Positions 14,382-58,412 of a stretch of DNA of 64,000 bases are shown here, one piece after another. Each line of letters starts with the position of its first letter. The stretch's first letter is position 1. Source of the DNA: Calothrix sp. NIES-2098 (lineage in GTDB: Bacteria; Cyanobacteriota; Cyanobacteriia; Cyanobacteriales; Nostocaceae); assembly GCA_002368175.1 (NCBI GenBank), contig AP018172.1, positions 221,599-285,598 on the forward strand. The letters run 5' to 3'. The translations under genes and the position numbers were made by a program. Under the pieces are notes generated by a model. The model was not told the DNA's origin. It did not search any database and worked only from the letters and a program-made list of their open reading frames with translations.

Positions 14382-14598
14382 GTTGATAATATTGCTTGAA
14401 TTGAATAGTCATAATATTGACTTGATTTAAGTTAATAAACAAGTGAAAACATCTGTCTATTACAGAGCTTGAAAAATTTTTGTATAACTTATAGATTTGA
14501 AATAAAACTCAAGATGGCTACGAATATATTTCGTTAGTTATGTTTCTAATTATTATTCATCTGCTGCTCCAATGATGTTAAAGAACTTCATTTCAAAC

Positions 14599-15742: not shown

Positions 15743-15838
15743 TTTAATCAAACCTAATGTTAAAAAATCTCCGCGTCATCAATTCGATGACACGAAGTTG
15801 GACAAGCGACATCAATTTGCAAATGTAGAGTTCAGAAA

Positions 15839-18025
15839 TTAACTGACTGTAATCACAGTTGCTAAACTCTCGTTCGCTAACCTGTTAATTGCGGAGACTG
15901 CATAGGTTCCCGTCCCTACAGTGGCAAAGTTTGTCCCAGCAGATAAAACTCGTTGAATTACCCAGTTATCCCCAGTTTGGCGATAAAGCGCCCAAGAACG
16001 AACTGGTTGGTTATCACCAGGTTGCCAATTGAGTTTACCGTTAACATATTGCAATCCTGTGGGGGGTGCTGGTGGTGTTGTATCATGCCAAGGCAAAATA
16101 GGAGTTAGGGCGGGTTTGTTATAAAGCAGACTTTGGAATTTATCAGCAATTCCCTGGCTATTTTCCATCAATACACCCAAATTAAAGAAAATATTCCCCA
16201 AAGATAAAAGTCCAGCTTGGCTACGACTAATTATTACCTGCTTTTCAATCTCTTCACTCTCCCGACTCTTGTTGCTGGGTTCCGTTAAATTGTTACCAGC
16301 GTAAACGTGTTTTTGTTTTGTGTTTACTTGTGTCCACCACTTGAGTAAGGCAGAATAACTTTGTTGTGTTTGGTCGGTACGCCAGTAAAGTTGAGGTGCA
16401 ATGTAATCAATCCAACCTTGTTCTAGCCATTTTTTCGAGTCAGCGTAGAGTACATCGTAAGCATCTAAGCCAGTAATTCCTGATGGTTGTCCGGGGCGAT
16501 AAATACCAAAGGGACTAATGCCAAATTTAACGTAGGGTTTTGCAGCTTTAATTCCTTCAGCTAGACGCACCACCATGAGATTGACATTTTCTCTACGCCA
16601 GTCACCCAAGCTGAGTCCGCCACCAGCGTTTTTATAAGCTGCGTAGGTTTTGTTATCGGGGAAAGTTTGACCTGATATGGGATAGGGATAAAAATAATCA
16701 TCTAAGTGTACGCCATCGATGTCATAACGGCGCACAACATCAAGAATAACGTTGTAAGCCCGATCTTGAACAACTTTCAATCCTGGGTCCATCCACAGCT
16801 GATTACCCCATTTATAAACAACTTCGGGATTAGTTACAGCTATATGGGGGCTGACATTTGAACCTTGCTGGATTGAAGTTTTAGCGCGATAGGGGTTGAA
16901 CCAAGCATGAAGTTCAATATTGCGCTTGTGACATTCTACGATCGCAAACTCTAAGGGGTCATAAAATGGTTCTGGTGCTTTACCCTGAGTTCCTGTCAGC
17001 CAAGCACTCCAAGGTTCTAATGATGAAGCATACAAAGCATCGCCTTCTGGCCGTACCTGCAAAATTAAAGCATTAAAGTTCAGCTGCTGTAATTTGGTGA
17101 TAATTGCCAGTAGTTCCGATTTCTGCTGTGCAGCAGGTAGTCCAGCTTTGGAAGGCCAGTCACTATTCCAGACTGATGCTACCCAAGCCCCGCGAAACTC
17201 CCGTTGATGGCTTACCCTGACTGTATTAGATGGTACTGGGGTTGGTGTTGGCGTCGGCGTCGGTGTTGGCGTTGGTACTGGAATGGGTATAGGTGTTGGT
17301 GTTGGAATGGGAGTGGGTGTCGGCGTTGGGGTTGGTATTGGAATCGGTATCGGCGTTGGTGTAGGTGTCGGTGTTGGACTCGGTGTTGGAGTGGGTGCTG
17401 GCGTCGGTGGAATCACTAAGTAGGCAGAGGAAATTTTATCTGCTTGCCCTAGATACACCAAAGCTTGATAGACTATTACTGCGACATCAGCACGAGTCGC
17501 TGCGATATTTGGGTTAAGTAATTTAATATTTGGATAGCTAGCGACTAAACCTGCACTTGTGGCAATAGCTACCTGATTTTTAGCATAGTCTGCGATCGCA
17601 TTTGCATCTTGATAGAATTGCGACAATTTACTAACCAAGTCAGGTTTGATTTTAGTAGCAAGATCCAAGCCGTTGACTATCGCAACAAAAACATCTCCTC
17701 TAGAAATTCTATTGTCAGGACGAAAAGTGCGATCGGGATATCCACTAATAAATCCTGTCTCATAAGTTTTTTGAATAGCATTAAAAGCCCAGTGTTTAGC
17801 AGGTACATCGCTAAAAGGGACATATTGCCGCTTTGGAGGTACTGTAAAGACTGCCCCAATAATGGCAGCAAATTCCGCACGAGTTACTGAGTTATCTGGG
17901 CGAAAAGTCCCGTTAGGATATCCATTTATAATGCGACGCGCTGATAAAGCTTGAATAAATAAGCGTGCCCAATGGTTTTTAATATCCGAGAAAGGTGTAG
18001 AACTAGATACCATTGTGGATTGCAC
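15839..18025 (-). CDS. SLH-domain cell-surface protein with a GHL10 (DUF187/YddW-DigH-like) glycoside-hydrolase-like domain
   Basis: N-terminal region has three SLH-like repeats ([20 protein letters not shown]; [20 protein letters not shown]; ...). A Pro/Thr/Ile linker ([11 protein letters not shown]...) is encoded by tandem DNA repeats at about 17225-17410. Then [18 protein letters not shown]... and an (alpha/beta)8-like region typical of PF02638. Confidence 0.75.
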
Positions 18026-18230
18026 CTAGATGTGATTTTGATTGTCCTATGTTAATTTAGCAACATAAGTGCGATCGCTGCCGACATATAAGCCCACAGC
18101 TAGAAACTAGTTGCTCAAACACACAGAGGAGAGGAGTTTTGAGGCTTTTATAGTAGTCAAACAAGGGAGTTGATGACTATCCTTTGTATTTATATCAGTT
18201 GATTTGATAAAAGTTATGCTTTTAACTGGT

Positions 18231-19340
18231 TTACTTTTCTTTTAAGATTTGAGTACCAGATATACTAGAGCATCCCCACACCTCAACGGTATTTTCTCCA
18301 CTCCAAATGAATAGTTTCTGCCCATCTGAGCTAATTGCAAGACCAGTAATTAACGATGAATGACTGGTGAGACTACAAAGTTCATGTCCTGTCCGAACGT
18401 TCCCCACTTTAATGCTTCCATTTTCTCGACTACCACTAAGTAAAAATTGTCGATCGCGGCTGACCGTAATTACAGGCATATACCCTGAAAGGCTGAAGGT
18501 GCAAATTATTTGTTCTGTTTGCCAATCCCATATTTTATATTTTTGGTCAAAATTTTTATCTTCAGTTACTAAAACTTGGGAATTTGAATAGATAAAATTA
18601 TGACCTCGATCCGACATATAAATATAGGAAATTACTCCTTGTACTTGTATATTCCATAATTCAAAAATTTCTCCGTCAACAGCATTTAAAAATGATTGAC
18701 CATCTAAACTCAAGGCAACATAGCAAAACCAATCTGAGCGTCGATGGGTAGTGAAGATTTTTTCCTTTGTTTTTAGATTCCACACTTCAGCATAATCGTT
18801 ACAATTCCAAAGCCTTAAAACACAATTGTCGGGTGTGATAGCGATTTGATCGAATTTCTTCGTTGCTTCTGATTGGAATGTGCATATTACTTGTTGTGTT
18901 CGCATATTCCAAACTTGAATTGTGTTGTTATAGTTACAAGTAACTAAGGTTTGCCAGTCTGAGCTTACATCTACACAAGTTATCTTGCGAACTTCATCTG
19001 TGTACCTCTCAATAGTAAAAAGATACTCCAACAATAAATAGGAGTTATATTGTTGTAATGCCAATTTAGCTTTTGGCTCTGTACTTTCCTGAAGTAGCCA
19101 ATAAGCTGCTTCTTGAACATCAACTTCTGAGTTCTGTAAAGCTTGAATAATCAAGTCTAAGCCAGCTTCTCCATACTCAAAAGCATCTAGAAGGGCATCA
19201 ATTTTTTGTTCAACCCTTCCATCTGCTAGCAATTGCTTAACTCTTTCAATCTCTCCCAAAACTGCATTATTTGCTGGGAGATTAGAACTATTACTTATAA
19301 AAACATCGGAGTTTCCGGGCTGATACGAATTTGTGGTCAT
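18231..19340 (-). CDS. Degenerate WD40-repeat protein (hypothetical)
   Basis: Repeated ...TIQVWN..., ...LRLWN..., ...YKIWDW..., ...TVEVWG... beta-propeller blades. Start is uncertain between MTTNSYQ at 19340 and 19364. Confidence 0.55.
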   Translation of the reverse strand: MTTNSYQPGNSDVFISNSSNLPANNAVLGEIERVKQLLADGRVEQKIDALLDAFEYGEAGLDLIIQALQNSEVDVQEAAYWLLQESTEPKAKLALQQYNSYLLLEYLFTIERYTDEVRKITCVDVSSDWQTLVTCNYNNTIQVWNMRTQQVICTFQSEATKKFDQIAITPDNCVLRLWNCNDYAEVWNLKTKEKIFTTHRRSDWFCYVALSLDGQSFLNAVDGEIFELWNIQVQGVISYIYMSDRGHNFIYSNSQVLVTEDKNFDQKYKIWDWQTEQIICTFSLSGYMPVITVSRDRQFLLSGSRENGSIKVGNVRTGHELCSLTSHSSLITGLAISSDGQKLFIWSGENTVEVWGCSSISGTQILKEK

Positions 19341-19356
19341 AAGGAATCTGATATAT

Positions 19357-20196
19357 ATGAGCAAAATACTAGAAACTAAAATTCTTAACTATCTCTCATA
19401 CTTAGGCGATTCAGAGTACATGGTTGAGATTGTTACATCACCTGGTGCAGTTGATAGCCTCATTAAGTTACTTCATAGCGATAATCCAGAAATTGTTAGC
19501 TACGCTTCTCTTTTTATTACAGATTTTGTTCTTAGCGGTTCTCGGAACAATATTTGCAAAGAATCCTGGGAAACTCAGCTACGGTCGAAAATTATTGCGG
19601 AACTAGAGCATCTTGTACTTATAAATAACCACTTCATACGTAAACAAGTAATCTATACCCTAGGAAAAATATGCAGTTATGATAGCGTACCTGTTCTGCT
19701 TCAAGCATTTCATGAACTACGCGATCGCGATCCAATTTTATTACCCCGACTTGTAGGAGAGTTATTTTGGCTGGGAGTAGAAAATCGTTTTGATATACTT
19801 GAGATTGCGATCGCCAGCAAACACTACACAACTCGCTGGGCTGTCTTAGAACTTTTAGGTGAATTTATTTATCGCGTTCCAGATGAAGAGGATGAAACGT
19901 TTTTAATGCAGTACAAGTTTTATGAACAGCTACGTCATGACTCACATAGATTTGTGAAGACGGAGGCAGAGTATAAATATCAAATTTCAGAATTGAATCA
20001 TCGTAAACATCAAGAAAATATGTCTAAATCCGAGTACAAAAAATTATACAGGGAATTAAATAAATTAAAACCCTCGCTGACTTTTTTTGGAATTAGTCTT
20101 CAATTTTGTAATTATATGTCGAGGAATAATCTATCTATATACACCATAGAAGAGCTAGAAAATTTTATTGATAACAAACTTAAACAAGAACTGTGA
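19357..20196 (+). CDS. Hypothetical alpha-helical (HEAT/ARM-like) protein
   Basis: Predicted helical repeats (...LIKLLHSDNPEIVSYASLFI..., ...VPVLLQAFHELRDRDPILLPRLV...). Divergent from the WD40 gene with near-overlapping 5' ends. Start is uncertain (19333, 19357 or 19420). Confidence 0.45.
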   Translation: MSKILETKILNYLSYLGDSEYMVEIVTSPGAVDSLIKLLHSDNPEIVSYASLFITDFVLSGSRNNICKESWETQLRSKIIAELEHLVLINNHFIRKQVIYTLGKICSYDSVPVLLQAFHELRDRDPILLPRLVGELFWLGVENRFDILEIAIASKHYTTRWAVLELLGEFIYRVPDEEDETFLMQYKFYEQLRHDSHRFVKTEAEYKYQISELNHRKHQENMSKSEYKKLYRELNKLKPSLTFFGISLQFCNYMSRNNLSIYTIEELENFIDNKLKQEL

Positions 20197-20293
20197 CCAG
20201 AACTAGCCAAGATTTGTTGTTGGGGTTACGTTGTCGAAATTGTCTTAGATATAATTTATCAACATTTTCATCAAGAATAAATTTGAGAGTCAT
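20177..20293 (-). pseudogene. Truncated remnant (38 codons) of a DUF5615 (Mut7-C/PIN-like) toxin gene
   Basis: The minus-strand ATG overlaps the DUF433 stop in another frame: MTLKFILDENVDKLYLRQFRQRNPNNKSWLVLVTVLV*. The N-terminal M.K..LDEN motif is typical of DUF5615, but the gene stops after 38 aa where about 110 aa are expected. Confidence 0.45.
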
Positions 20294-20621
20294 CTGTTTT
20301 GTTCATGGCTTCTCTTTCAGCTTTGAATTTTATCAGCTTGGCAACAACTGGCGGGGGGTTGCGGCGCTGTTCTTCCCGCACTTTATGACTCCACTCTAAC
20401 CAATCAGTCAGGTAGGCGCTGACAGCTTCTTTGTTATGCAGGTAATAAAGAATAGTTGCATATACTTGCTCTAAAGTCACCGAGGGATAGCTTTCAGCAA
20501 TTTCTTCTGGAGTACGACTGCGATGGATAAATTCATAAAGAATAGTTTCAATGCCTACTCTTGTACCTTTGAGTCGAATATCATCAGGACGCTGAAAATC
20601 AAAGTAATCTTCTAGAAGCAT
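20271..20621 (-). CDS. DUF433-family protein (antitoxin-like partner of DUF5615)
   Basis: MLLEDYFDFQRPDDIRLKGTRVGIETILYEFIHRSRTPEEIAESYPSVTLEQVYATILYY fits the characteristic DUF433 pattern. Confidence 0.7.
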   Translation of the reverse strand: MLLEDYFDFQRPDDIRLKGTRVGIETILYEFIHRSRTPEEIAESYPSVTLEQVYATILYYLHNKEAVSAYLTDWLEWSHKVREEQRRNPPPVVAKLIKFKAEREAMNKTDDSQIYS

Positions 20622-20961
20622 AATTTACCTTATTATTTATTGGGCTAAATATAATTTTACAGAGTTGCAAAATGTGTCTATAACATTCTGTTGAAAATTA
20701 GTTTATAAAATTTCATTGCTGCTAACACTTATTTTTCAAACATGATATAAGTAAGACTGCTATATTGACGCTAGTACAAATGTTCGGCACAAGCATCAAG
20801 AGAATGGCTAAGAATTACCAATTCCCCATAACCCATGCTATTTACCTGATTTCTCTGCGCTGGGAGTTGTTGGATAAATCCGAAATTCTCTGGCTGAACT
20901 AGTAGACAATCTATATTTCCTTGCTACACTTTTACTTCATTAGCCCAGCAAAAGAGCGCCT

Positions 20962-23900
20962 ATGGTTCATGTAAAGCGCGTCGAACTTACCAATTTTAAG
21001 TCCTTCGGTGGTACTACCCAAGTTCCTTTGCTGGGGGGGTTTACTGTCATATCTGGGCCGAATGGTTCTGGTAAATCGAATATTCTTGATGCGCTGCTGT
21101 TTTGTCTCGGACTCGCCAGTTCTAAGGGAATGCGAGCCGATCGCTTACCAGATTTGGTAAATAATACTCAAACAGCTAAAAGTCGTGCGACTGTGGAAGC
21201 TAGCGTCACGGTGACATTTGATATTACTGATGCAGTCTCCCTTAACGATACTAAGGCGCAAATTCAAGACAGCCTGGAAGAAATAGAAGTAATAGAAGTT
21301 GAGGAAACCGAGGAAACTGAGGAAGACAAGTCAAACTCAAAACTTCCTAATCCCGAAACGTCGAATGAGTGGAGTGTCACCAGAAAGCTGCGGGTGACGC
21401 ACCAGGGAACTTATACGTCAAATTACTATATCAATGGCGCATCTTGCACTCTCACAGAATTACATGAAGCCTTGGAGTCGCTGCGGATTTATCCCGAAGG
21501 CTACAACGTTGTCCTTCAAGGGGATGTCACCAGCATTATCTCGATGAACGCCAGAGAACGGCGGGAAATTATTGATGAATTGGCGGGGGTAGCAGCGTTC
21601 GATCGCAAGATTAACCAAGCCAAGGATACTTTAGATGAGGTGAAGGAGAAGGAAGATAGTTGTCGGATTATTGAGACAGAATTAACTGTACAACGCGATC
21701 GCCTTTCTCAAGACCGAGCCAAAGCCGAAAAATATCAAAAACTCCGCGCAGAATATCTATCTAAACAATCCTGGGAAGCTGTGTTATCGTGGCGTTCTCT
21801 ACAAGCACAGCAAGAAAAATTAGCTAACCAAATTCAAAATGGCGATCGCAAATCTCAAGAACTTTCGGCGGAACTGACAACTCTTAACACTACAATCGAG
21901 CAAACAACCGTTGAACTCGATCAACTCAATGCTCATGTGAAAGCTTTAGGGGAAGAAGAACTTTTAGCCGTACAATCTAACCTCGCCACCCAAGAAGCCG
22001 AACACAAACAACTCCAGCGTCAGCGCAGCGAATTAGAAACAGCTACCCAAGAAACTGCGAAACGTCAGGCGCAAAACCAGCAAGAAATTCAACAGCACCA
22101 ACGTTCCTTAGAACAAATTGCGGAAACCCAGGTTGTCGAAAAGCAATCGATTGTTTACTGTCAGCAACAAAGAGATGAAGCACAACAAGCTTTAGAAACT
22201 TCTCGCCAAGCAGCAGCAGAAATTGCTTCGGCTTCGGAAGCTTGGGTACAGCAACAAACGGCGTTAAACCGTCAAATAGAAACTCTGCTGCAAACTCTCG
22301 AACCGCAACGCACCGAACAAGCACAGCTAAGAGAACGTAACGATCAGCTACAGCAGCAAATTCAAGAGCAAACCCAGCTAGTTGCCACTTTAGAACCAGA
22401 ATTAGCCACAAAACAAGCTGAGTGTAGTCGTTTAGAAACAGAATTTAACACCTCTAGCGAACCAATCCAAAACTTAGCGCAAAATCTCGCCGCTACCGAA
22501 CAAGAACTGCAAATTCAACAAGATACGCAAAAGCGGCTTTTACAAGAACAACGGGAAAAACAACGACAATTAGATAAACTAGAAGCGCAAGCGCAAGCAC
22601 AGCAAGAAGTTCAAGGAACGCAAGCTAGCAAAGTCATCATGCAATCGGGAATGCCGGGACTTTGTGGCTTAGTGGTACAGTTAGGCAGAGTCGAACCCCG
22701 CTTTCAACTGGCTTTGGAAATTGCTGCGGGTGGACGTTTGGGACATATAGTGGTGGAAGATGATGGGGTCGCCGCTGCGGGAATTGAACTTTTAAAGCAG
22801 AAACGCGCCGGGAGAGCTACCTTTTTACCCTTAAATAAAATTAACGCTCCCAGATTTACCCAAGATGCCACACTGCGTTTAGCTGGTGGTTTCGTTAACT
22901 ATGCTGTTAACTTAGTTGAATGCGATCGCCGTTATAAAGATGTCTTTAGCTATGTTTTTGGTAACACCGTAGTATTTTCCACCCTCGAACAGGCGCGGAA
23001 AAACTTAGGCTTATACCGCATCGTCACTCTCGACGGGGAATTATTAGAAACTAGTGGCGCAATGACTGGTGGTAGTAACAACCAGCGTTCATCGTTGCGG
23101 TTTGGGAACGTGGAAGCCGCAGAACCGGAGGAAGTAGCCGCTTTAAGAAACCGCTTAGGGGAAATTGAACGAGTTTTAGAACGTTGTACTGAAGCCATCA
23201 ATAAGCTGTCAATCAAAACCAAAGCCTTGGCGCAAGAAGTCACAGAAGCACGTCAAGCACGGCGAGAACAGCAGTTGCAATTAGAACAATTGCAAAAAGA
23301 AATTAAAACTTTGACAGCGCAGTTAGAAAATACGCGATCGCAATTAGCGCAAAATAGTGAAAAATTCGCCACTGCGCAATCGCGCTTGGAGGTTCTGGCT
23401 CGGGAATTACCAGGACAAGAAACGCAGTTGCAACAATTGCGACAAACTTTAGCAGAATTAGAAGCATCGCAAACCCCCAGCGAATGGCAACAAATTCAAG
23501 CAACTATTAAAAACCAAGAGCAACAATTACAACAAAGAGAAACAGCATTACGCGAAGCCGAACAAAGATTAAAAAATCTCGAAAATCAGCAACAGCGCTT
23601 GCAAGAAAAAATCCAAGAAGCAGAGGAACGAATTACTCAATACCAGCAAGAACAAGAGACACAACAAAATCAATTAACAGCACTCAGCACTCAGCACTCA
23701 GCACTCAGCACGCAAATTGCTGAAACCCGTGTAAGGTTGAGTCAGATGGAACTTAATTTAGGCGAAGAAAAACAAAAACGCGATCGCACCGAACAAGAAT
23801 TGCGATCGCATCTCCTGCGTCAGCAACAATTAGAATGGGAATTGCAAAAACTCCAAGAAACTCTCGTAGCACGGCGAGAGGAATTAGTTAACGTCAAAGA

Positions 23901-25790: not shown

Positions 25791-26549
25791 TTAACTACAG
25801 GTAGGTGCTGAAGCCGAGTTCATCTTTGTTAAATCGCCAGTAAATACAGCTGTGTATTGATAAGGTGATGAACCAGAACAATTCATTGCACTTGTATTAG
25901 TGCGGCGGGGAGTCCACCAGGATTTTGCCCCTACAGTTAAATTTGCACCATTCCATAATAAACTGTTGACTAGTAAAGAATTAGTTTTACCATCATTTGG
26001 TCTTTTAGCAGTTAGAAATGTGGCATATCTAACGTTACCATTGGTTGGATCGATCCGGGCGATAATTGCTACTTTGGGCCCGCCACCACTACCATAACTA
26101 GTTAGCCAACGACCAATAGCAAAGCGCCCAAAATTATTTCCTGATTGGGTTCCGGTGGAGGAGAAAACACCATATAAAACGCTTCCTCCATCCCAAAGCA
26201 AGCCATAGCCTGAACCATCATCACCAGTTGTTTCATAATCGCTACGACACCATCTTTTAACACCATTATCAAAACGGACGATGCGAGGATCTTTGTTACT
26301 AGATGATACTTGCTGATAACCTATGTAGATTGTTGTCGAGCCAATAGTTACTTTGGGGCCATTTTTAGCTTTGATTGTTGCTTCACTGTCATTACAAGTA
26401 AATGTCACTGCACTACCAACAGATGACTGTACAGCAGTAGTTTGAGCAACTGCGAAAGGAGCTATTCCTGCGATCGCTAAATCAGCTCCTAATATCACTG
26501 ATAGAGATAGGAAAGCCAAATTTTTTGGCAATTTGTGATTATAACTCAT
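25791..26549 (-). CDS. Secreted hypothetical protein (signal peptide, Gly/Ser/Thr-rich)
   Basis: N-terminus MSYNHKLPKNLAFLSLSVILGADLAIAGIAPFAVAQ is a signal peptide. No recognisable catalytic motif. Confidence 0.5.
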   Translation of the reverse strand: MSYNHKLPKNLAFLSLSVILGADLAIAGIAPFAVAQTTAVQSSVGSAVTFTCNDSEATIKAKNGPKVTIGSTTIYIGYQQVSSSNKDPRIVRFDNGVKRWCRSDYETTGDDGSGYGLLWDGGSVLYGVFSSTGTQSGNNFGRFAIGRWLTSYGSGGGPKVAIIARIDPTNGNVRYATFLTAKRPNDGKTNSLLVNSLLWNGANLTVGAKSWWTPRRTNTSAMNCSGSSPYQYTAVFTGDLTKMNSASAPTCS

Positions 26550-26821
26550 TGAATTGAGTTGATTAGATTACTTGATGTTTAAAAAATTAAAATACCATAA
26601 AGTTTAAGAAATATTTCAGTAAAGCTAAATTTTTGTTAGATTTTTTGAGCGTGTGTTGTTATTAAGCATCAAGTTGAATGTTAAAATCCTAGCTTCTTTG
26701 TATTTTTCTAGTTACAGATTTCTTACTAAAAAGACACAAAGTATTTTCAAGTTAGTTCTTCACTGAAAAATCCTACAACCCTCTTCTCCGTTTCCTATTG
26801 TTAAGATAGAGATTTTACTTC

Positions 26822-28453
26822 TTAGAAATTTAAAATGTCTAAAGACTTTTCAATTTCCAAATCTAGAATTCTTTCCCTTGCATCATTGTGTTCTGCTATC
26901 TTGCCTTCTTTCCAATAAATCTCGGCTGCTTTTTGAAAATCCTCAAGTGCGCCTTGCTTATCTCCTAAACTGAAACGAGCATGACCGCGGTTATAATAAG
27001 CATCTACATAATTAGTGTTAAGCTTAATTGCCTGAGTGTAATCTATGATTGCAGCCTGATAATTTCCTAAGTCAAAATGAGTGTTACCTCGGCTGTAATA
27101 AGCATCAACATAGTTAGGATTAATTTTGATTGCCTGAGTATAATCGGCAATTGTTCCTTCATAATCTCCTAAGTCTGCACGCGCTTGACCGCGGTTATAG
27201 TAAGCAACAGCATCATGAGGATCTATCTTAATTGCTTGCGTAAATTTTTGCTGTTCTAATAATAAATAACGAGAAATATTACTGTTTTTATTAGTAATGG
27301 CATAATGAGGATTAATTTTGATTGCCTGCGTGTAATCTTCAATTGCTCCTTGAGCATCTCCTAGATGGGAACGAGCATCAGCACGGTTTTTATAAGTAAC
27401 AGCAACATGGGGATTAATTCTGATAGCTTGCGTATAATCTTCAATTGCTGCTTGATATTCTCCAAGCTGATAACGAGCTAAACCACGCTGATTATAAGCT
27501 TTGCTGTGATTAAGATTAATTTGGATAACTTGAGTATAGTCTGCGATCGCACCTTCGTAATCTCCTAGGTGATAGCGCACCATACCGCGTTTGTAATATA
27601 CCTCAGCATTATGCGGATTCAGTTGCAAGGCTTGATTATAGTTAACAATCGCTGTATCAGATTCACCTTGCTCGAAAGATTTATCGCCTAGATTCTCATA
27701 AAACTGATTTAAGTCGGGTTCATACTCAAAGAAAATCTCTTCTTTTGCCGGATATTCTAATAGCTTGGTTAGTTGATTATTATTTTGATTACTTGGTATA
27801 ACTTGCTGGCGATCGTAAGTATAAATTGCAGATTCTTTTTGATTAGGTGTAGCAGCCAGTAACTGTTCCAAATAACACTGCAAACCCCCACCATACAGCA
27901 ATTGATTAATACCAAAGGAAATTCTTCCAGTTTTTAACTTAATCATTTTTGTAGGCAAAAAGCCAGCCAAAAAAAGGTGATATTCGCTCTGCGCTTCATG
28001 CACTTCTTCTTGAATGAGAACACAGACTACAACTGCATTTTTCTCAACTTCTTCGGAACTCACAGACCATCTAACTTTATCAAGACTGCCATGACGGGAT
28101 TTGACCTCAACACCAATTGATGGGTCAGAAGTTAGGGTGAAATCAATTTTTCCATCCCCACCAAATCGCTTTTCATAATCTACTTCTGTAATAAAATCAG
28201 CTAACCGTTCTTTAACAACTTCTTCGCCAAGTTTGCCTTTTAAGTTGCTAATAAAAACGTCACGAACTAGCGAAGTACGTTTATATTTTTCTGCCATCTG
28301 CCAGCAAAATTCTCTGAGTGCTTTTAACCTCTCTCCAGAGATTATAGTTAGTTCGCTATATTGACCTTCTGTTTCACAATGAAGCAGACAACCAGTTGTT
28401 AACCTCTTAATAAAATCAGACTGTAGCGATCGCAGTAAGGTAATCCAATCCAT
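26822..28453 (-). CDS. Two-domain protein: N-terminal PD-(D/E)xK nuclease-like domain plus C-terminal TPR repeats
   Basis: N-terminal about 230 aa contain ...EEVVKERLADFITEV...GDGKIDFTLTSDPSIGVEVKSR, a D-x12-E-x-K arrangement. The C-terminus has about 7 tandem 34-aa TPR units (A..Y..AI.DYTQAI.INP...AY.NRG.AR..LGDY.GAI). One unit is degenerate (YAITNKNSNISRYLLLEQQKFTQAIKIDPHD). Confidence 0.6.
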   Translation of the reverse strand: MDWITLLRSLQSDFIKRLTTGCLLHCETEGQYSELTIISGERLKALREFCWQMAEKYKRTSLVRDVFISNLKGKLGEEVVKERLADFITEVDYEKRFGGDGKIDFTLTSDPSIGVEVKSRHGSLDKVRWSVSSEEVEKNAVVVCVLIQEEVHEAQSEYHLFLAGFLPTKMIKLKTGRISFGINQLLYGGGLQCYLEQLLAATPNQKESAIYTYDRQQVIPSNQNNNQLTKLLEYPAKEEIFFEYEPDLNQFYENLGDKSFEQGESDTAIVNYNQALQLNPHNAEVYYKRGMVRYHLGDYEGAIADYTQVIQINLNHSKAYNQRGLARYQLGEYQAAIEDYTQAIRINPHVAVTYKNRADARSHLGDAQGAIEDYTQAIKINPHYAITNKNSNISRYLLLEQQKFTQAIKIDPHDAVAYYNRGQARADLGDYEGTIADYTQAIKINPNYVDAYYSRGNTHFDLGNYQAAIIDYTQAIKLNTNYVDAYYNRGHARFSLGDKQGALEDFQKAAEIYWKEGKIAEHNDARERILDLEIEKSLDILNF

Positions 28454-34181: not shown

Positions 34182-35228
34182 TTGAACGAGTATGATTTTT
34201 TAGAGCAAGCTGTAAGCCTCATGGTCACTCAAGGAGATTTAGAAACAGTTCCATTGCCTTATCTAGATGTTCTCAAGGACTTGCATTCCAGGTACAAGTC
34301 ACTTAGAGATGGTGCAGTAGCAAACTACATTCCAGAATTGGCAAAGGTAAATCCCGACTTGTTTAGCATCTGCATTGTCACTGTAGATGGTCAGATTTAT
34401 GAAGTTGGGGATTTTGAGCAACTATTTACCATTCAGTCGATTTCTAAAGTATTTGCCTACGGACTGGCACTTGAGGATCATGGAAGAGATTATGTTTTGA
34501 CCAGAGTTGGCGTAGAACCGACAGGAGATGCATTCAATGCCATTATCCTTGATGAACAATCAAATCGACCATTAAACCCAATGGTAAATGCCGGGGCGAT
34601 CGCTACCACTAGTTTAATCAAAGGTGCGGGTGCAACCGAACGCCTCAACCGGATGCTGGATATGTTTAAACGATACATCGGTCATGATGTATTCGTTGAT
34701 ATTTCTGTATTCACCTCAGAACGCAGCACGGGACATCGCAACCGTGCAATGGCGCATCTCATGCTCAACTTTGGCATGATTGACCAGAACATTGAGGAGT
34801 CCTTAGATCTATACTTTCAGCAGTGTGCGGTCATGGTCAATTGTCGTGACTTAGCAGTCATGGCGGCGACTTTAGCCAACAAAGGTATCAATCCTATTAC
34901 TCAGGAACAAGCGGTAAAGAAAAGTTACATTAAAGACATTTTGAGCGTAATGTACACTTGCGGGATGTATAACTTTGCTGGCGAATGGGCTTATAAAGTC
35001 GGTATTCCTGCGAAAAGCGGTGTTTGTGGCGGAATTATGGCTGTTGTCCCCCATCAGATGGGAATTGCTGTATTTTCGCCACCCTTGGATAAACGGGGTA
35101 ACAGCGTGCGGGGGGTTAAAGTATGCGAAGAACTTTCCCAGCAGCTTGGTTTACATCTATTTGAGTGTTCTGGGAAAGGGTCAAAGTTTGGATGTCAGGA
35201 AACTGAGGGGAATTTGAAAATTATTTAA
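34182..35228 (+). CDS. glsA: Glutaminase A
   Basis: [29 protein letters not shown]...[12 protein letters not shown]... has the serine-dependent glutaminase signature. Apparent TTG start. Confidence 0.88.
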
Positions 35229-35477
35229 AGGATGGGGCGCTCGCACAGTTTAGGACTCACACAACTAACTATATTATTTACTTTTTGAGTGGGCAGAGGC
35301 TAGTAGTGATCCGCCTACTTCAGACTTTATTTTTTATATGTCACATAATTTACATATTTTTAAATTTGTCATAGACAGTGGAAGTGATTGTTTATGTATA
35401 AATTTATAGATTCTATTTAGTAGGAATTTTTTGAATTTTATTCCCCAATACATTTTCTTTGTAGCAGTTTTAAAATT

Positions 35478-36020
35478 ATGCCCCAGCAAACAGAAGTATT
35501 AGTTCAGCAGGGAGTAATCAAGGCTTCTAGGAACAATTTACTTAGTTCTATTGATGAAGCCATAGAGCATTTTGAAGATTATGAAACGCAGATAATCCTC
35601 AAAAAATATGGTTTTGATGTAAACTCTCTGCTTGACGATTTGAATGATTCTAAGGATTGGATATCTCAACTAATCAACGATCAGCAAAGCTGTCATGCTG
35701 CTGTAGCAGAATACATACATAGCAACAGGAGTTTGGGTTGGATGTCAGAAGATTGTGAAGCAATCATTCAGCAATGTCGAGAAGAAATTATTGCCTCAAT
35801 AGAATTCGGCGGTGAATATAATTCTAAACTAGAAAATTTTGCTTTTGAATTAAAATCTCATCTATCTAAATATCCGGAAAAGCACAAACAAGTTATTCAG
35901 GAATTAAAAAATGATAAACAAAAAGAGATAAATGCAGAAAATGAGTATTCAGACAAAGTACTTTTGTATGAAAAATATGATGTTATACTCCGAAGAATAG
36001 ATGATATTCCTGAAAAATAG
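35478..36020 (+). CDS. Hypothetical acidic cytoplasmic protein (AT-rich island)
   Basis: 180 aa with no recognisable motif. Lies at the edge of a low-GC region. Confidence 0.4.
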   Translation: MPQQTEVLVQQGVIKASRNNLLSSIDEAIEHFEDYETQIILKKYGFDVNSLLDDLNDSKDWISQLINDQQSCHAAVAEYIHSNRSLGWMSEDCEAIIQQCREEIIASIEFGGEYNSKLENFAFELKSHLSKYPEKHKQVIQELKNDKQKEINAENEYSDKVLLYEKYDVILRRIDDIPEK

Positions 36021-36070
36021 TTTTCGGGAGTTGCTCTAAAAGTTTAAGCCATTTGATTTTTGAAATATAG

Positions 36071-36093
36071 GTAGGGTGGGCAATGCCCACCTA
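36071..36093. repeat. Intact copy of the palindromic repeat GTAGGGTGGGCAATGCCCACCTA
   Basis: Near-perfect palindrome (GGTGGGCA A TGCCCACC) in the convergent intergenic gap. It is the same sequence that is split by the MITE at 13656-13870. Confidence 0.8.
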
Positions 36094-36181
36094 AACTTCA
36101 GCTTCAATCATAAGAAAATTTTTGATCAAAAAACACACGTAATTACTATACTTCGTCTAAGTATACTAAGGACAAACTAAG

Positions 36182-36763
36182 CTATTGAGAAATTAAGGGT
36201 TTCCGATTTCTATCACGCATACGTTTTGCTAGTTGAGGGTTAGGTCTGGTAAATTGTTCACCTGTAAAAATTTCAATGCTTGCCAGGATTTCTTTTAATT
36301 TTTTTGTTGACAATTCAATTTTTTCTATTTCTTTACTAAGATTGTTAATTTCTTCACTTAGTAATTGATATGTCGTACTCTGGGAATTCAAATTTACTAG
36401 TTCATGTTCTATTTGTTTTTTTCTATGTCTACTTTGTTCTAATTGGTTTTCTAATCTGTGAATATCTCTACTAAACCTGAGAATTTTTCTAGGCAGATTT
36501 CTATTAATAATATCTTGTTTTATACGTTTTTCTTCTTCCAAAATATCCTGTGACTTTTTATGTAATTGCTCTGTTTCCCTGTCTGTAATCTGTGTTAACC
36601 CTTGAAGTAATTCTGGTTTTGGATTTTTTGTGATTTCATTTGTGTGTTTATTCAAGGTTTGTTGATCTAAATAAAAAACTTTATGTTTTGTCACAAGCAA
36701 AGCAGCAAAAATACCACTAACAAAGGCTATTACTATAAATAATACTTGACTAATAATTATCAT
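36182..36763 (-). CDS. Hypothetical membrane-anchored coiled-coil protein
   Basis: N-terminal TM helix (IIISQVLFIVIAFVSGIFAALLV), then a charged heptad-rich region (EEEKRIKQDIINRNLP...LENQLEQSRHRKKQIEHELVNL). Very AT-rich coding sequence. Confidence 0.5.
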   Translation of the reverse strand: MIIISQVLFIVIAFVSGIFAALLVTKHKVFYLDQQTLNKHTNEITKNPKPELLQGLTQITDRETEQLHKKSQDILEEEKRIKQDIINRNLPRKILRFSRDIHRLENQLEQSRHRKKQIEHELVNLNSQSTTYQLLSEEINNLSKEIEKIELSTKKLKEILASIEIFTGEQFTRPNPQLAKRMRDRNRKPLISQ

Positions 36764-36943
36764 ATTTTATTTATTTTAATACTAAAAAATATCTTTGGGA
36801 TTTACAGATCAATACATGAACATATACAGCATTCTATCTTTTAAGTTATGTGCAACTAGATACTTGCATACCTGCTAAATAAATAATTCTAAACTTTATA
36901 ATTATTAAATCTCATGATCTTAAATCACTCTATACATAACTTG

Positions 36944-37816
36944 TTAAGAGTTTTCTAACAAATGTATTCGCTCTTCAATCTCTTGCATTTGTTCGCTATC
37001 ATAGTTACTATGAAGTTCTCGTAATATATTTTTCATTTGTTCTAATTGTATCTTCAAATTTGGATTTGCATTTAAGCTATGATTGTTTAAACTATAAAAA
37101 ATATATTTAATTGCTCCTAATTCTTCCTCTAAACACTCTAGAATTGCACTTCCTTGATAATCATATTGTAAATTTTGCAGAATCCGAATTGCTCTAAGAC
37201 GTTCTTGCAAAGCAATTGGCTGATTAAACGTCTGGTATTCTTTAAAATAAAAAGGTTGTTGAACTTGCTGTTGTATATCTATCTGTTCTGCAGATAGAAC
37301 AGAAACTTGATATTCTAGCCATTTAAGCTTTACCTCAATTCTATATAGTTTTTCCTCTGTTGCAGTCCACAAATTTTCCTGTAAGTTATTCTGAATTTTA
37401 ACTAATTCTTCTTTTTCTAGCCAATCTTGTAATTTTCTTGTAATAGCCTCTTTATCTTGTTCACGAGATAAAACACTTGTGAACCATTGATATCCAAAAA
37501 AAGTTAGTGAGATAGTTACTACCGTACCTACAAGTGATAAAAAAATCGTATCCAAAAGGCTCTTGTTGTACTCTTTCATCAACTCTAAAGCATCTTGGGT
37601 ATCCTCTTTAGGAGAATTTGAACTTTGAGGGAGTGGGGTATTAATTTTACTGTTAGTCGATGGGATAGCGATCGCAGTTAAAGGTTCTTGAGCATAAAGC
37701 GGTTTATTAAGACTTTGCGTACCTAAAAAATATCCGATGGATAAAGATAAACAAATTAAGAAAATTAATATAAGATTATGTTTGTGAAAAAATAATCGAT
37801 AATTATGTTTTTGCAT
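36944..37816 (-). CDS. Hypothetical membrane coiled-coil protein (2 TM)
   Basis: TM1 LILIFLICLSLSIGYFL and TM2 IFLSLVGTVVTISLTFFGY, then a long coiled-coil/Gln-rich C-terminal region. Very AT-rich. Confidence 0.5.
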   Translation of the reverse strand: MQKHNYRLFFHKHNLILIFLICLSLSIGYFLGTQSLNKPLYAQEPLTAIAIPSTNSKINTPLPQSSNSPKEDTQDALELMKEYNKSLLDTIFLSLVGTVVTISLTFFGYQWFTSVLSREQDKEAITRKLQDWLEKEELVKIQNNLQENLWTATEEKLYRIEVKLKWLEYQVSVLSAEQIDIQQQVQQPFYFKEYQTFNQPIALQERLRAIRILQNLQYDYQGSAILECLEEELGAIKYIFYSLNNHSLNANPNLKIQLEQMKNILRELHSNYDSEQMQEIEERIHLLENS

Positions 37817-37985
37817 GAGTCTACGTAATTGTTAAACTTCAGAAATATTAGTCTGAAATTGCAATAACACTTGAAAATCAGTCCGAGAGCCGTTCAAATT
37901 ATGACAATAAACTTGGGATGCTTGATGCATTTTACATTAGTATCAAACATCTCAAGCCATTTTGAAAACTAAAGTTACTTCTGCT

Positions 37986-38396
37986 TTACAAGCGATCGCA
38001 CTCCACAATACTCTGCAATAGTTTCTGCTCTTCAATCATGGCGCGACGGATACGATTAATCATATAGCAAGCTGTATTTCTATTTACCTCTATTTTGGAA
38101 GCTAGAGCGCGTACTGTGATTGTGTTTGGTGACTTTATCACAAGCTCAATCGCCAAAAACCACTTATGTAAATCTACATAAGTTTTATGAAAGAGAGTTC
38201 CAACTGTAACGCTATAGGAATTAAAGCATGTGTTGCAATGATACCTGCGTTCTCGCTTGATTGCTGTAGAATTAATTGACTCGCAATAGGGGCATTTTGG
38301 TGTTCCACTCCAGCGGATTTTTTCTAAGTAAGCTAGGCAATCTTCGTGAGTGCGTGTCATTTTTAAACCCAGAGTTACTGAGTTAAAAAGACGCAC
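37986..38396 (-). pseudogene. Fragment of an IS1595/ISXO2-like transposase: N-terminal zinc-ribbon/HTH only, DDE domain absent
   Basis: EDCLAYLEKIRWSGTPKCPYCESINSTAIKRERRYHCNTCFNSYSVTVGTLFHKTYVDLHKWFLAIELVIKSPNTITVRALASKIEVNRNTACYMINRIRRAM matches the N-terminal Zn-ribbon of IS1595-family transposases. Length is 136 aa against about 300 aa for a full transposase. Confidence 0.6.
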
Positions 38397-38669
38397 AGTT
38401 TGACTGTATAAGTTACGTAAAGCTTAATTTAGCCAATAACAGCGAAAATTCAAGGCTGTTTGCCTAGGAATATAAGTTTTTATAAAAAAGCTACAGTTAA
38501 TTTATGCTACCAATACTCAATGCCACGATCGCTTTTAATACAGCAATACATACTGATACCTCTGGATTGTAATTCAAAGCGATCGCCATTATTCGACATT
38601 TAACCAAGGTAGCAGTTAGAACAAAGTAAGAATTGTTACTTTTAAATTTTGTTTTAACGAGAAAATATT

Positions 38670-40091
38670 ATGACTGAAGAAAAGACATACTTAGAGCTTT
38701 CAGAAGCTAGTGGCGGCTCCCATAAATTTTATGAAGTTATCGTCAAAGATACGCAAGTGACCATACGCTATGGTCGCATTGGTGACACAGGACAAACCCA
38801 GACTAAAACTTACCCCACCCCAGACAAAGCTAAAGCAGACGCTAACAAAAAGATCAAAGAAAAACTGGCGAAAGGTTACGAACACGCCGTTATGGGCGTG
38901 CGCCAGAAGCGTCCTGTTACCCGACGTGCAGTTACGAGTACCCAATCGACAGCCCAACAAGCGCCAATTTTGTGGAAATTTAATTCTAATTCTGCCGCCT
39001 TTGGCATTTTTGTTGACAGTAATCGCTGTTGGGTGGGTAATCAAGCAGGTCAAGTTTTTGCGCTAAATCACCAAGGTCAAGTTATCAATCAGTTTAAGCT
39101 TCCCGATGGCGTTAAATGTTTAGTTGCTGATGATATTTGGATTTATGCTGGCTGCGATAACGGCAACGTCTACGACCTCACAGGCAAATTACCACGTATT
39201 GCCTATGAAATTGATGAAAATGTTGATATTTTCTGGCTGGATATCAAAAACGGTTTATTAGCAGTCTCCGATGCCAACGGTGGTGTCACCACCATCGATC
39301 ATGATGATGAGTCACAATGGACTCGTTTAAGTCAAGGTGATTCTGGCTGGATGGTACGTTGCGACGAAGTTGGTGTTTATCACGGTCATAGTCAAGGCGT
39401 GACTATGTACGATAACAAAGAAGGTCGGATGCTTTGGCATCAAAAGACTGCTGGCGGTGTACTATTTGGTTGGCAAGAAGCATCAGCTGTTTATGCGGGT
39501 GCAAGCGATCAAAAGATTTACTGCTTTAGCAAGAAGGGTGAGGCTGGCGCAGTTTACAAATGTGATGCTGCTGTCTACTCTTGCGCTACAGCCTTAGATG
39601 GAAAGTATGTTTTTGCTGGTGACAATAGTTCTTCGATTTACTGCTTCAACAAATCAGGAGAACGCCTTTGGAAACTTGGAACTGGTTGCGGTTCTGCTTT
39701 ATCTATGCAATTTTTTGAGCATCGCATTTATATTGTCACCACCGATGGTTCTCTGGCTTGTATAGATACTAGTGAAGCTGCTATCCAAGCCGCCCAAGTG
39801 GGTACAATTCCGCAAGCAGCTATTATTAAAGCACCAGCCGGAGAAGGTGCAGCACCTTCCGCAGTGGTGGAAACTACAACAGATACCAGCCAAGGAGTAA
39901 TTGTTGAGTGCTTCCGGGAAGGGAGTAAACTCAGGGTGCGGGTTGTCTCGCTAGGATATAACCCTAACTGGAAAGTACAGTTTCCTAAAGATATCCGCCA
40001 AGAAGGACAGCGTTATCTTGTCCAAGAAATACGCGAATCAGCTAGTGGAGGTTTTTACCGCGCTTATGGTGATATTAAAAAGTTAGTCTAG
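38670..40091 (+). CDS. WGR-domain protein fused to a PQQ/BamB-like beta-propeller
   Basis: N-terminal SHKFYEVIVKDTQVTIRYGRIGDTGQTQTKTYPTPDKAKADANKKIKEKLAKGYE is the WGR fold. Repeated ...G.VYA..../...IYCF... blades follow. Hypothetical function. Confidence 0.6.
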   Translation: MTEEKTYLELSEASGGSHKFYEVIVKDTQVTIRYGRIGDTGQTQTKTYPTPDKAKADANKKIKEKLAKGYEHAVMGVRQKRPVTRRAVTSTQSTAQQAPILWKFNSNSAAFGIFVDSNRCWVGNQAGQVFALNHQGQVINQFKLPDGVKCLVADDIWIYAGCDNGNVYDLTGKLPRIAYEIDENVDIFWLDIKNGLLAVSDANGGVTTIDHDDESQWTRLSQGDSGWMVRCDEVGVYHGHSQGVTMYDNKEGRMLWHQKTAGGVLFGWQEASAVYAGASDQKIYCFSKKGEAGAVYKCDAAVYSCATALDGKYVFAGDNSSSIYCFNKSGERLWKLGTGCGSALSMQFFEHRIYIVTTDGSLACIDTSEAAIQAAQVGTIPQAAIIKAPAGEGAAPSAVVETTTDTSQGVIVECFREGSKLRVRVVSLGYNPNWKVQFPKDIRQEGQRYLVQEIRESASGGFYRAYGDIKKLV

Positions 40092-56773: not shown

Positions 56774-57273
56774 TGGTATTGATTCCTTCTCTTGCTAGGT
56801 GAAAGAAATAAGTCAAAAAGTTACGCAGTAGACTTCGGTTACTGAAACATTTGTAGATGTTTTCCTAAACACACTTAATTTAGGCAGGAAAGCAACAATC
56901 ACCAGGAATAATTTGAAAGCATAAACATGAATACACAGCTACACTCCACATCTATAAGTATCAGTAAAACAGTTAAGTTCGCCACAGATGAAGTTAGCCG
57001 TTATCCAAGACTTAGCCAATCAGCTTTTGACATTTGATACCCATCTGAAAATGTGGATTTAGTTTCAGAGTTCAGCTGTATGCATCTCTAAATCAATAAT
57101 CAGCACTCCAGCTACTAACTCATGAAATGAGTCCCATATCATCAAAGTATGATAAAAGCTGAGAGTCAGAGAGAAATAGAGTATGTAACTGGAATACCCA
57201 CCTTTTGTAGGGGTGATTCCTGAGAGGCAAGGCAATAGTAATTGCTCTAAATATTACTATAAATTATAAGCTA

Positions 57274-57507
57274 TTACTGACTAGAATAAATCCAGCGATC
57301 GCTAGCTTTTCGATAGCTGGGTTTTTTACTACAATTATAATTATTTTGTTCTTCCCAAATATCGCCTTGTTCCATCTCTCGATTCACCAATAACTGTAAT
57401 TTCTCTGGTAATCTAGCCCTGTAATCTAGCGACCAAAGTTCTATATCTAGTAATTCTCTCTCAATTTTCCCAAAAATCATTTGCTGACCCTTCCTTAGTC
57501 TTAGCAT
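57274..57507 (-). CDS. Small hypothetical ORF (77 aa)
   Basis: ORF only, no motif. Confidence 0.2.
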   Translation of the reverse strand: MLRLRKGQQMIFGKIERELLDIELWSLDYRARLPEKLQLLVNREMEQGDIWEEQNNYNCSKKPSYRKASDRWIYSSQ

Positions 57508-57843
57508 TTCTTCCTACTAGTTTTGTAAGTAGAATTTGTCCAAGTTTCATAGCTCAAGACATGGATGAATACCAAGAATTCAAGTCTTGCATATTCGTAA
57601 TCTGTTCATAACTTATTTATAATTGCTATAATTTTTGAATTAACTTAAAACTTTTGGAAGTTTGAAATTATTAAAAAAATAAGTATTTGGATATGTAATG
57701 ATATCAGTATGCTTGCAGTATGAAAAAATACAAATTCACCAAGGAAGCGATCGCATTTAAATTACAATCCTTTTATAGGGTTTTCTCGCAAACTTTATTA
57801 CATCTAAGCCAGTAGCAATATATCTTCAGAGAAATAGTTATTT

Positions 57844-58206: not shown

Positions 58207-58412
58207 GATGATATTTAGAGTATTTCGTTACTCTAGACAGATCTAACGCTAAAATATTTGATTTAAGCACGCATCAGCAGAATAAACTTAATCTTAAGTA
58301 ATTTGAGTGGGCACTTCAGCAAAGTTAAATACGTCATCATGACACATGATAGATAAATCTAAATTTTCTATCAAACTAATTAAAATGTGACAAGTAATTT
58401 TAGGAGAATAAC

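Follow-up and report, generated by a model that had tools for sequence, protein, structure and literature searches.

A mobile four-gene cassette headed by a domesticated IS1595-type Zn-ribbon gene in the chromosome of Calothrix sp. NIES-2098

In the genome of the cyanobacterium Calothrix sp. NIES-2098, an AT-rich stretch separates glsA from a gene for a WGR/beta-propeller protein, and its reading frames raise the question whether we are looking at the wreck of an insertion sequence (IS) with its passengers or at a genetic unit in its own right. We studied it in a window of 64,000 nucleotides (assembly GCA_002368175.1, contig AP018172.1, positions 221,599 to 285,598 of the forward strand), whose own numbering is used throughout. 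A preliminary description, drawn up from the letters of the window, had proposed a horizontally acquired accessory module with two membrane-anchored coiled-coil proteins beside an IS1595-like transposase fragment. We show that positions 35232-38569 contain four genes, here called A to D, that recur in the same arrangement at at least ten other loci, and we are highly confident that they form a conserved mobile cassette with a domesticated gene D. That the cassette is horizontally exchanged and also works by the mechanism and in the role outlined below is a longer chain of claims, to which, taken as a whole, we give somewhat less than an even chance. The insert and its genes are as follows.

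35232-38569: strain-specific insert of about 3.34 kb, between glsA (34182-35228, plus strand) and the WGR/beta-propeller gene (38670-40091, plus strand)
35478-36020, plus strand: gene A, 180 amino acids (aa), isoelectric point (pI) 4.7, net charge -15, soluble, no transmembrane (TM) segment, convergent with D-C-B
36182-36763, minus strand: gene B, 193 aa, pI 9.7, TM anchor (about residues 3-25), long charged helical region, basic C-terminal tail
36944-37816, minus strand: gene C, 290-aa membrane protein, hydrophobic segments at about residues 12-36 and 86-109
37986-38360, minus strand: gene D, 124 aa, pI 9.2, Zn-ribbon (CPYC...HCNxC) and helix-turn-helix (HTH), first gene of the D-C-B operon

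The reading frames of the acidic 180-aa protein and of the two membrane proteins on the minus strand had been described correctly. Gene D had been drawn from 37986 to 38396, that is, from a GTG codon that would give 136 aa; since all homologues begin at the ATG at 38360, this codon is the most likely start, and with D the unit comprises four genes rather than the two or three proteins originally counted. All four are single-copy in the window, and searches with A, B and C each returned one 100% cluster, from Calothrix sp. NIES-2098.

Do these genes belong together? Word-seeded protein searches found no homologue for A or B and a single one, 51% identical, for C. On the contig of that homologue, L003, the same four genes stand in the same order and orientation, with identities to the window proteins of 72% for D, 51% for C, 31% for B and 37% for A. 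When 1.84 billion representatives were searched exhaustively with a profile of C, 62 relatives scored E < 1e-3 and 18 of them E < 1e-10, the latter being 225-340 aa long except for one 79-aa fragment. The genomic surroundings of nine of these strong matches and a plasmid search, which contributed one more copy, led to the loci L059, L061, L062, L066, L069, L072, L073, L075 and L077, which join the window and L003 to give eleven independent loci that encode a relative of C. At every one of them, amid differing flanks, the gene order is D, C, B with A convergent, and the sizes stay within narrow limits for D (121-130 aa) and within wider ones for C (275-338 aa) and B (132-222 aa). The neighbouring genes vary from locus to locus (hisS, pntB and genes for aldehyde dehydrogenase, dCMP deaminase and Uma2, for example). 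The named hosts, all of them cyanobacteria, are Calothrix sp. MO_167.B12, Alkalinema pantanalense CENA528, an Elainellaceae metagenome-assembled genome (MAG) and Nostoc sp. C057, where the cassette (L069) resides on the conjugative plasmid p057_H (MOBF/MPF_T). Evolutionary distances of D and C are correlated across the loci (Mantel r = 0.59, p = 0.0005), those of D and B only weakly (r = 0.23, p = 0.11). The common gene order in independent contexts and the co-divergence mark a conserved multi-gene module, and in filamentous cyanobacteria the four genes travel as one unit between plasmids and hot spots of the chromosome. Chance open reading frames (ORFs) are ruled out by the conservation of the four genes over eleven loci, and a housekeeping role is ruled out because the genes are missing from the closest relatives; no housekeeping homologue of either membrane protein emerged, in agreement with the accessory character first proposed.

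The distribution of C was also probed elsewhere. With tblastn, no match was obtained in plasmids or phages, none appeared in viral contigs in a single scan with only two N-terminal peptide patterns, and a metagenome scan gave one weak match. A weak match of the C profile, protein P0023 (L078), was not counted as a cassette since it comes without D and the partner genes.

What is D, and did it enter the genome as part of a transposon? D matches PF12760 (Zn_ribbon_IS1595) with E = 6e-11 and the NCBIfam model transpos_IS1595 (NF033547) with E = 8.5e-11, the latter only at profile positions 4-67 of 215. Its residues 4-122 align to the N-terminal DNA-binding region of IS1595 transposases, with the Zn-ribbon cysteines and the HTH retained. 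Full-length members of this family from viral contigs (276-290 aa from the aligned start) are 42-55% identical to D over these residues and continue into the catalytic domain, and plasmid-borne transposases from outside the cyanobacteria are 31-40% identical. Unlike these enzymes, D contains no DDE domain (PF12762) in any of the eleven cassettes, belongs to a separate clade and heads an operon that also encodes two membrane proteins. Among PDB sequences, the profiles of C and D matched nothing below E = 0.1.

In the literature, PF12760 serves as a marker of mobile elements (PMC13639185). One could accordingly regard the locus as a decayed IS1595 element with passenger genes and D as a non-functional transposase relic that marks its arrival, and the restriction of D to the Zn-ribbon/HTH part, at 42-55% identity to full-length transposases, is what such decay might leave. 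We consider this explanation very improbable. D is the best conserved gene of the cassette (47-71% identity to the window copy versus 23-53% for C), and its length of 121-130 aa is kept in all eleven copies; the called genes of L072 and L077 are too short, and translation gives a full-length D in both. CPYC, HCN-x-C, a SYSV motif and residues T96 and A97 of a near-invariant NKNTA are invariant, and the proteins stop at nearly the same C-terminal position. By the method of Nei and Gojobori, the ratio of nonsynonymous to synonymous substitution rates (dN/dS) is 0.09-0.12 for D, 0.23-0.36 for C, 0.73 for B and 0.46-0.79 for A, all of them rough values given that dS is near saturation. D is under strong purifying selection. 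The D proteins of the cassettes form a single clade apart from the full-length transposases (193 of 200 bootstrap replicates, neighbour-joining) and co-diverge with C, and the 169 bp between D and C in the window, like the 28-210 bp of this spacer elsewhere, are too few to hold a decayed DDE domain.

The search for terminal inverted repeats likewise speaks against a transposon relic. An IS1595 insertion sequence has terminal inverted repeats at both ends, and its insertion is expected to produce a target-site duplication of about 8 bp. Neither for 35232-38569 nor for the conserved core 35330-38394 did we find credible inverted repeats that pair the two ends; the best such pair is 20 nt at 70%. 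A direct repeat or target duplication was not seen at the junctions, which lie in a hypervariable spacer and are imprecise to the base, and the end segments are unique, with no repeated end sequence. The homology to a transposase N-terminus that had been noticed at the outset is thus real, whereas its interpretation as an IS remnant does not agree with the constant length, the purifying selection and the single clade. D derives from the DNA-binding N-terminus of an IS1595-type transposase and had become established as a gene of its own by the time the cassettes diverged.

Separate N-terminal DNA-binding parts of transposases are known from IS1 InsA, IS911 OrfA and the Tn5 inhibitor, where they act as sequence-specific binders or repressors, and D may follow the same principle. 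However, those proteins are encoded in active insertion sequences and regulate transposition, whereas D stands apart from any transposase or IS ends and is tied to unrelated cargo. On the mobilizable plasmid pCAL6303.02 of Calothrix sp. PCC 6303 (L070:4989-8133), we observed a solo D of the cassette clade (64% identity) without C, B and A. Downstream of it come about 0.9 kb free of long ORFs, then the gene of a serine recombinase and a large ORF, judged by eye to be an rve-type (Mu-like) transposase. This solo D is probably a disrupted cassette.

How did the cassette come to lie between glsA and the WGR gene? We compared 55 loci with an orthologue of the WGR/beta-propeller gene and mapped the window proteins onto each. 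In 14 related Nostocales genomes, 46-331 bp separate the glsA stop codon from the WGR start, and nothing of A, B, C or D is present; the corresponding gap in the window is 3441 bp. These genomes include Aulosira sp. ZfuVER01 (95% WGR identity), Nostoc spp. 106C and T09, N. carneum NIES-2107, Tolypothrix tenuis PCC 7101 and Calothrix brevissima NIES-22, and the nearest relatives by WGR identity (94-95%) are among them. Next to the 14 empty sites, two sites carry the cassette and three carry other cargo:

L040:1582-4904, Nostocaceae MAG: 3.3-kb insert encoding an 889-aa protein with AAA_16, winged-helix and TPR parts, plus an 86-aa TM ORF
L038:7290-10000, Cylindrospermum NIES-4074: 158-aa N-terminal fragment of Septu PtuA (E = 5e-41), interrupted by an ISL3 transposase
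L039:8973-10000, Nostoc FACHB-152: DUF4058 gene

The spacer between glsA and the WGR gene is thus a recurrent insertion hot spot in Nostocales. Hot spots for defence islets between core genes have been described in enterobacteria and Pseudomonas. Like these, the glsA-WGR site is empty or variably occupied, and its cargo deviates in composition and brings no integrase with it. It differs from them in its small size (one to four genes) and in that its cargo is only partly related to defence.

The DNA match to the empty sites of relatives ends at 35231 (L004) and restarts at 38570 (L005 and L056). As the ancestral spacer is hypervariable across the relatives, the junctions cannot be placed to the base. 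The insert nevertheless extends well past the palindromic repeat at 36071-36093 that had been taken for its boundary: this repeat lies inside, between A and B, and the true limits are near 35232 and 38569.

The AT-richness of the insert was confirmed by windowed GC content and codon usage. In 500-bp windows, the GC content of approximately 35250-38250 is 26-33% versus 43-47% in the flanks, and the 2-kb window with the lowest GC content of the whole 64 kb is 36001-38000 (29.9%). The segment 35232-38569 (3338 bp) has 31.8% GC, whereas non-overlapping windows of the same size average 41.3% (standard deviation 2.5%, z = -3.8), with a minimum of 35.1% among them. GC content at third codon positions (GC3) is 0.26 in A, 0.19 in B and 0.22 in C versus 0.33-0.42 in the flanking genes rlpA, glsA, WGR and hlyD, and D is host-like at 0.39. 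In the nine hosts with enough flanking sequence for comparison, cassette GC lies 8-16 points under that of the flanks, and in all eleven cassettes GC3 of C and B is below that of D. One possibility is that this asymmetric codon bias reflects low-expression tuning of toxic membrane genes. Both presence/absence polymorphism between conserved flanks and deviant composition, the marks of an acquired islet, are therefore found at this locus. Further AT-rich stretches of the window (35-37% GC in 2-kb windows) are located at about 14000-16000, 18000-21000, 26000-28000 and 57000-60000, and the NIES-2098 genome appears to be a mosaic.

A second contig allowed a closer view of the site. The ends of L003 match L039 with 97% and 92% identity (L003:1-179 and 3359-3959 versus L039:11559-11737 and 9240-9840), one end corresponding to sequence immediately downstream of the WGR gene and the other to the DUF4058 gene. 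A near relative of Nostoc FACHB-152 hence carries a diverged cassette in the same hot spot, in the orientation of the window, with the WGR gene replaced. Such a copy might suggest that the cassette is an old resident of the glsA-WGR site in Nostocaceae, inherited vertically and deleted many times, with an AT-richness that is intrinsic to helices rich in Lys, Glu, Asn, Ile and Gln. HIP1 sites within the island and the host-like GC3 of D would agree with long residence. We judge this history to be quite unlikely. It needs clean independent losses in at least 14 lineages including the closest relatives, and GC3 values of 0.19-0.26 are a signal of synonymous sites, which amino-acid composition does not explain. 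Moreover, FACHB-152 and the L003 host differ in the presence of the cassette at 92-97% flank identity, and other copies occur in unrelated loci and on a plasmid. Since the closest relatives are free of the cassette, FACHB-152 and the L003 host differ despite near-identical flanks, and the remaining copies sit in unrelated loci and on a plasmid, we favour exchange of the cassette by homologous recombination in conserved flanks over an old resident that was repeatedly lost. Recombination in the flanks would also explain the missing IS ends and integrase. The empty sites, the anomalous composition and the copies in unrelated contexts and on a conjugative plasmid bear out the horizontally acquired accessory module that had been suspected from the start.

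The WGR/beta-propeller gene next to the hot spot is itself unstable in some relatives. In Calothrix sp. NIES-4101 (L048:10001-12915) about 1.5 kb interrupt it, in Nostoc sp. T09 (L056:10569-10594) it shows a frameshift-like overlap, and in Aulosira sp. DedQUE10 (L058:10001-10282) it is reduced to the codons for its last 94 residues, adjoining glsA. The protein, with a WGR domain and a PQQ-like beta-propeller, is weakly matched by the PADLOC model WGR_XIII (E = 3e-5). It occurs in 55 genomes including those of two actinomycetes at 61-62% identity, an unusually high conservation across phyla.

What kind of proteins does the cassette encode besides D? C consists of a signal peptide or first TM segment (about 12-32), a linker rich in P, S, T, N and Q (33-73) that varies among homologues in both length and sequence, a highly conserved TM helix (about 86-110) and a helical domain with a WLEYQ motif. 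An AlphaFold model of C based on 17 family members (mean predicted local distance difference test, pLDDT, of 77 and above 85 over most of 110-290) is all-helical: a hydrophobic helix 9-32 and the disordered linker 33-73 precede a single helix 74-186, which holds the second hydrophobic segment and then extends for about 75 residues, and a compact bundle forms the C-terminus. The N-terminal hydrophobic segment may be a cleaved signal peptide, as it terminates in x-A-Q in many homologues. The most conserved stretch is the TM helix, YNxDLLNTVFxSLLGTVxTI, with T90, S94, G97, T98 and T101 on one face, followed by WLEYQ (W166, E168, Y169), LQERxRAI and QG-x4-C-x3-EL. C has no match in Pfam, in PDB or among viral structures.

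A gene in the position of B (132-222 aa) is present in all eleven cassettes. The N-terminal TM segment is found in eight of ten aligned copies, an alignment that excludes L077; the B proteins of L059 and L069 as called are without it, perhaps owing to mis-called starts. An RN[LI]xR[KR]I motif is common to the copies, and from the basic residues that follow the N-terminal anchor the bulk of B is predicted to be cytoplasmic. Homologues of A occupy the equivalent position in L003 (37% identity), L059, L073, L075 and L069. Four more distant cassettes have two adjacent genes of 82-109 aa in place of A (L062:9503-10041, L066:9429-9996, L072:9583-10146 and L077:9465-10067), of which the upstream one keeps the conserved motif of the N-terminal half of A. 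The single-sequence model of A is all-helical and of low confidence (pLDDT 62). In L062, L066 and L075, the convergent genes A and B meet or overlap at their 3' ends, by 16 bp in L066, which hints at control by convergent transcription.

Searches of Pfam, NCBIfam, PADLOC and PHROG with A, B and C returned only sub-threshold coiled-coil noise (DUF489, DUF724, Rad50/SMC and LmuB), and in scans member by member no library family was matched by more than one member. In PADLOC-DB 2.0, B has weak coiled-coil matches to LmuB (E = 4e-4) and PD-Lambda-1 (E = 1.5e-3), and A, C and D have none. Beyond this noise the cassette matches no PADLOC model of a known or candidate defence system, and the earlier remark that known defence domains are absent holds. 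As far as profile matching can tell, A, B and C lie outside all families in the libraries searched, and no described family or system covers the cassette. In the literature on PF12760, on domestication of IS1595, on NIES-2098 and on cyanobacterial defence, we found no description of such a cassette.

Is the expression of the cassette controlled by elements of its own? Four features of the non-coding sequence stand out, besides a fifth at the start of D:

35330-35477, plus strand: conserved region upstream of A, 73% DNA identity to L003
35380-35389: GGAAGTGATT box upstream of A, invariant in four cassettes
35422-35444: inverted repeat AGGAAT...ATTCC upstream of A, kept in four cassettes
36071-36093 (core 36075-36091): GC-rich palindrome GGTGGGC-AAT-GCCCACC between the 3' ends of A and B, 7-bp stem and 3-nt loop
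38356-38392, minus strand: leader hairpin or palindrome around the start codon of D, 37 nt ending just past this codon

The region upstream of A is a putative promoter or operator. The 22-mer of the palindrome recurs identically in Aerosakkonema (L046) and with 20 of 21 bases in Aphanothece (L057); judged by these sequence matches, it is a copy of a dispersed cyanobacterial repeat. Since the repeat is dispersed and is absent from the A-B spacer of L003, it was probably acquired after the cassette had arrived. It may serve as a bidirectional terminator, although a terminator scan passed over it for want of a T run. At 13656-13872 of the window we noted a MITE-like element (miniature inverted-repeat transposable element) of about 217 bp, whose terminal inverted repeats (GTAGGGTGGGCATTGCC... 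and ...GGCATTGCCCACCTA) have the sequence of the palindrome. The palindrome at 36071-36093 resembles the two ends of this element joined, with the middle missing.

The hairpin at the start of D recurs in other cassettes with the following folding energies and z-scores against shuffled sequences:

Window, 38356-38392: -12.3 kcal/mol, z = -3.5
L003:244-279: -18.7 kcal/mol, z = -5.9
L059:6100-6137: -12.4 kcal/mol, z = -4.3
L061:188-227: -21.8 kcal/mol, z = -7.2
L069:4967-5006: -22.6 kcal/mol, z = -6.8

The sequences of these hairpins differ while their position is constant, with G-U pairs and compensatory changes and with arms of up to 17 bp. The hairpin is specific to some clades. It may act in the RNA, by limiting the translation of D, or in the DNA, as a palindromic operator. 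Rfam gave only a sub-threshold chance match of the microRNA type, and a promoter and terminator scan returned no excess of hits over shuffled sequence.

How might the four products act together? D would be a sequence-specific regulator of the cassette or a DNA sensor, a function that we regard as reasonably probable, and its synthesis would be throttled by the hairpin or palindrome over its own start codon. C and B would assemble in the inner membrane through their TM helices. We lean towards such a membrane complex, and the Thr/Ser/Gly stripe of the C helix fits helix packing or the lining of a pore. The variable linker of C would face outward and the cytoplasmic helical domains of C and B would offer docking surfaces, while acidic A (-15) would be a cytosolic protein that partners or antagonises basic D (+7) or B (+8). 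As for the role, the cassette would be a conflict module of the abortive-infection or exclusion type that acts in defence against phages or mobile elements, with the membrane pair as effector. This role is suggested by the defence-type cargo of the hot spot, the neighbouring genes, the patchy distribution, the AT-rich codons of the membrane genes and the fast evolution of A and B, and we propose it only tentatively. Neighbours of other cassettes include genes for Uma2/PDC-S03, a TIR protein and a BrnA antitoxin, and a mad2-like NTPase gene lies beside the plasmid copy (a plain tally over about 10 loci). A more specific version, in which the cassette is an anti-phage or anti-plasmid system of filamentous cyanobacteria that is exchanged without an integrase at chromosomal defence hot spots, appears rather unlikely to us. 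In such a system, D would recognise or respond to invading DNA, C and B would form the effector (by a pore, depolarisation or exclusion) and A would restrain it.

Several observations weigh against this proposal. The leader hairpin is present at only five of the 12 examined loci that carry D and is missing from six cassettes as well as from the solo D of L070. No integrase, terminal repeats or target duplication that would explain the mobility of the cassette were found. In the window itself, both flanking genes are housekeeping genes, and because Uma2 genes are very abundant in cyanobacteria, proximity to Uma2 is weak evidence. As A, B and C belong to no PADLOC, PHROG, Pfam or PDB family, it is the context of the cassette from which its role must be read, and the PADLOC-DB 2.0 screen used a library of 2023, which predates newer systems. 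Behind the high dN/dS of A and B there may be no more than weak constraint on helical sequence of the coiled-coil type, and dS is near saturation. Finally, contacts among the proteins are predicted solely from charge and position, and so is binding of DNA by D.

Likenesses to known membrane-active systems are partial. With its N-terminal TM anchor and long helical region, B is reminiscent of i-spanins and Sie-like proteins, and the polar stripe in the TM helix of C could be compared to pore-forming effectors. However, neither C nor B has a sequence or structural match to abortive-infection (Abi), exclusion or i-spanin proteins, and the helical parts are predicted to be cytoplasmic by the positive-inside rule, not periplasmic as in i-spanins. 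Holin, endolysin and o-spanin genes were not found near the cassette, nor were PHROG lysis families. A prophage lysis cassette was ruled out, as there are no phage genes within 10 kb and no viral structural match.

The same set of components could alternatively serve signalling. In an envelope-stress or anti-regulator switch of the Psp type, C and B would sense a membrane or periplasmic cue and capture or release A, A would control D, and in place of defence the output would be the transcription of genes of the host or the cassette. The DNA-binding protein, the two bitopic membrane proteins with their cytoplasmic helical domains and the soluble acidic helical protein fit the logic of such a switch and would parallel the regulator, the soluble helical antagonist and the two small bitopic membrane proteins of the Psp system (PspF, PspA, PspB and PspC); the conserved putative operators and the variable extracytoplasmic linker of C would fit as well. 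Yet there is no homology to PspA/IM30, PspB, PspC or PspF, and D is not an AAA+ enhancer-binding protein. Family, PDB-sequence and structure searches revealed no similarity to PspA, PspB, PspC or anti-sigma factors, and a target regulon is not evident. The cassette is mobile, and its patchy, strain-specific distribution, low GC3 and plasmid copy suit a selfish or conflict module better, so that we rate a signalling function as improbable.

A further reading starts from the plasmids. The cassette could be a maintenance or exclusion module of mobile elements, either an addiction pair with B or C as toxin and A as antidote or a plasmid-derived system of entry or superinfection exclusion that landed in chromosomes. 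The copy on a conjugative MOBF/MPF_T plasmid and the solo D on a mobilizable Calothrix plasmid are in line with this idea, and so are the persistently AT-rich codons of C and B and the complementary charges. The 3' ends of A and B that abut or overlap in L062, L066 and L075 recall some antisense-controlled toxin systems. On the other hand, most copies are chromosomal amid housekeeping genes, C was not found in plasmids or phages by tblastn or in viral contigs in the one scan with two peptide patterns, and four genes exceed a typical toxin-antitoxin pair. We therefore see little likelihood in a maintenance function. Compared with both alternatives, we give the defence or exclusion role more weight, tentative as it is.

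What does the cassette mean for the biology of these cyanobacteria? The findings imply that PF12760 includes at least one clade in which a domesticated DNA-binding protein stands alone, tied to fixed partner genes. As genes of the D type are routinely annotated as "transposase", this has a bearing on IS annotation and on counts of mobile elements in cyanobacteria. To our knowledge, few defence systems have been tested experimentally in Nostocales. If the defence or exclusion role is true, the cassette would add to the known systems one in which a transposase-derived sensor or regulator is coupled to membrane effectors, and the glsA-WGR site would represent a small, integrase-free hot spot for immune cargo in Nostocales. 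Should the cassette instead prove to be a signalling or addiction module, it would still provide a clean example of the exaptation of a transposase domain in bacteria.

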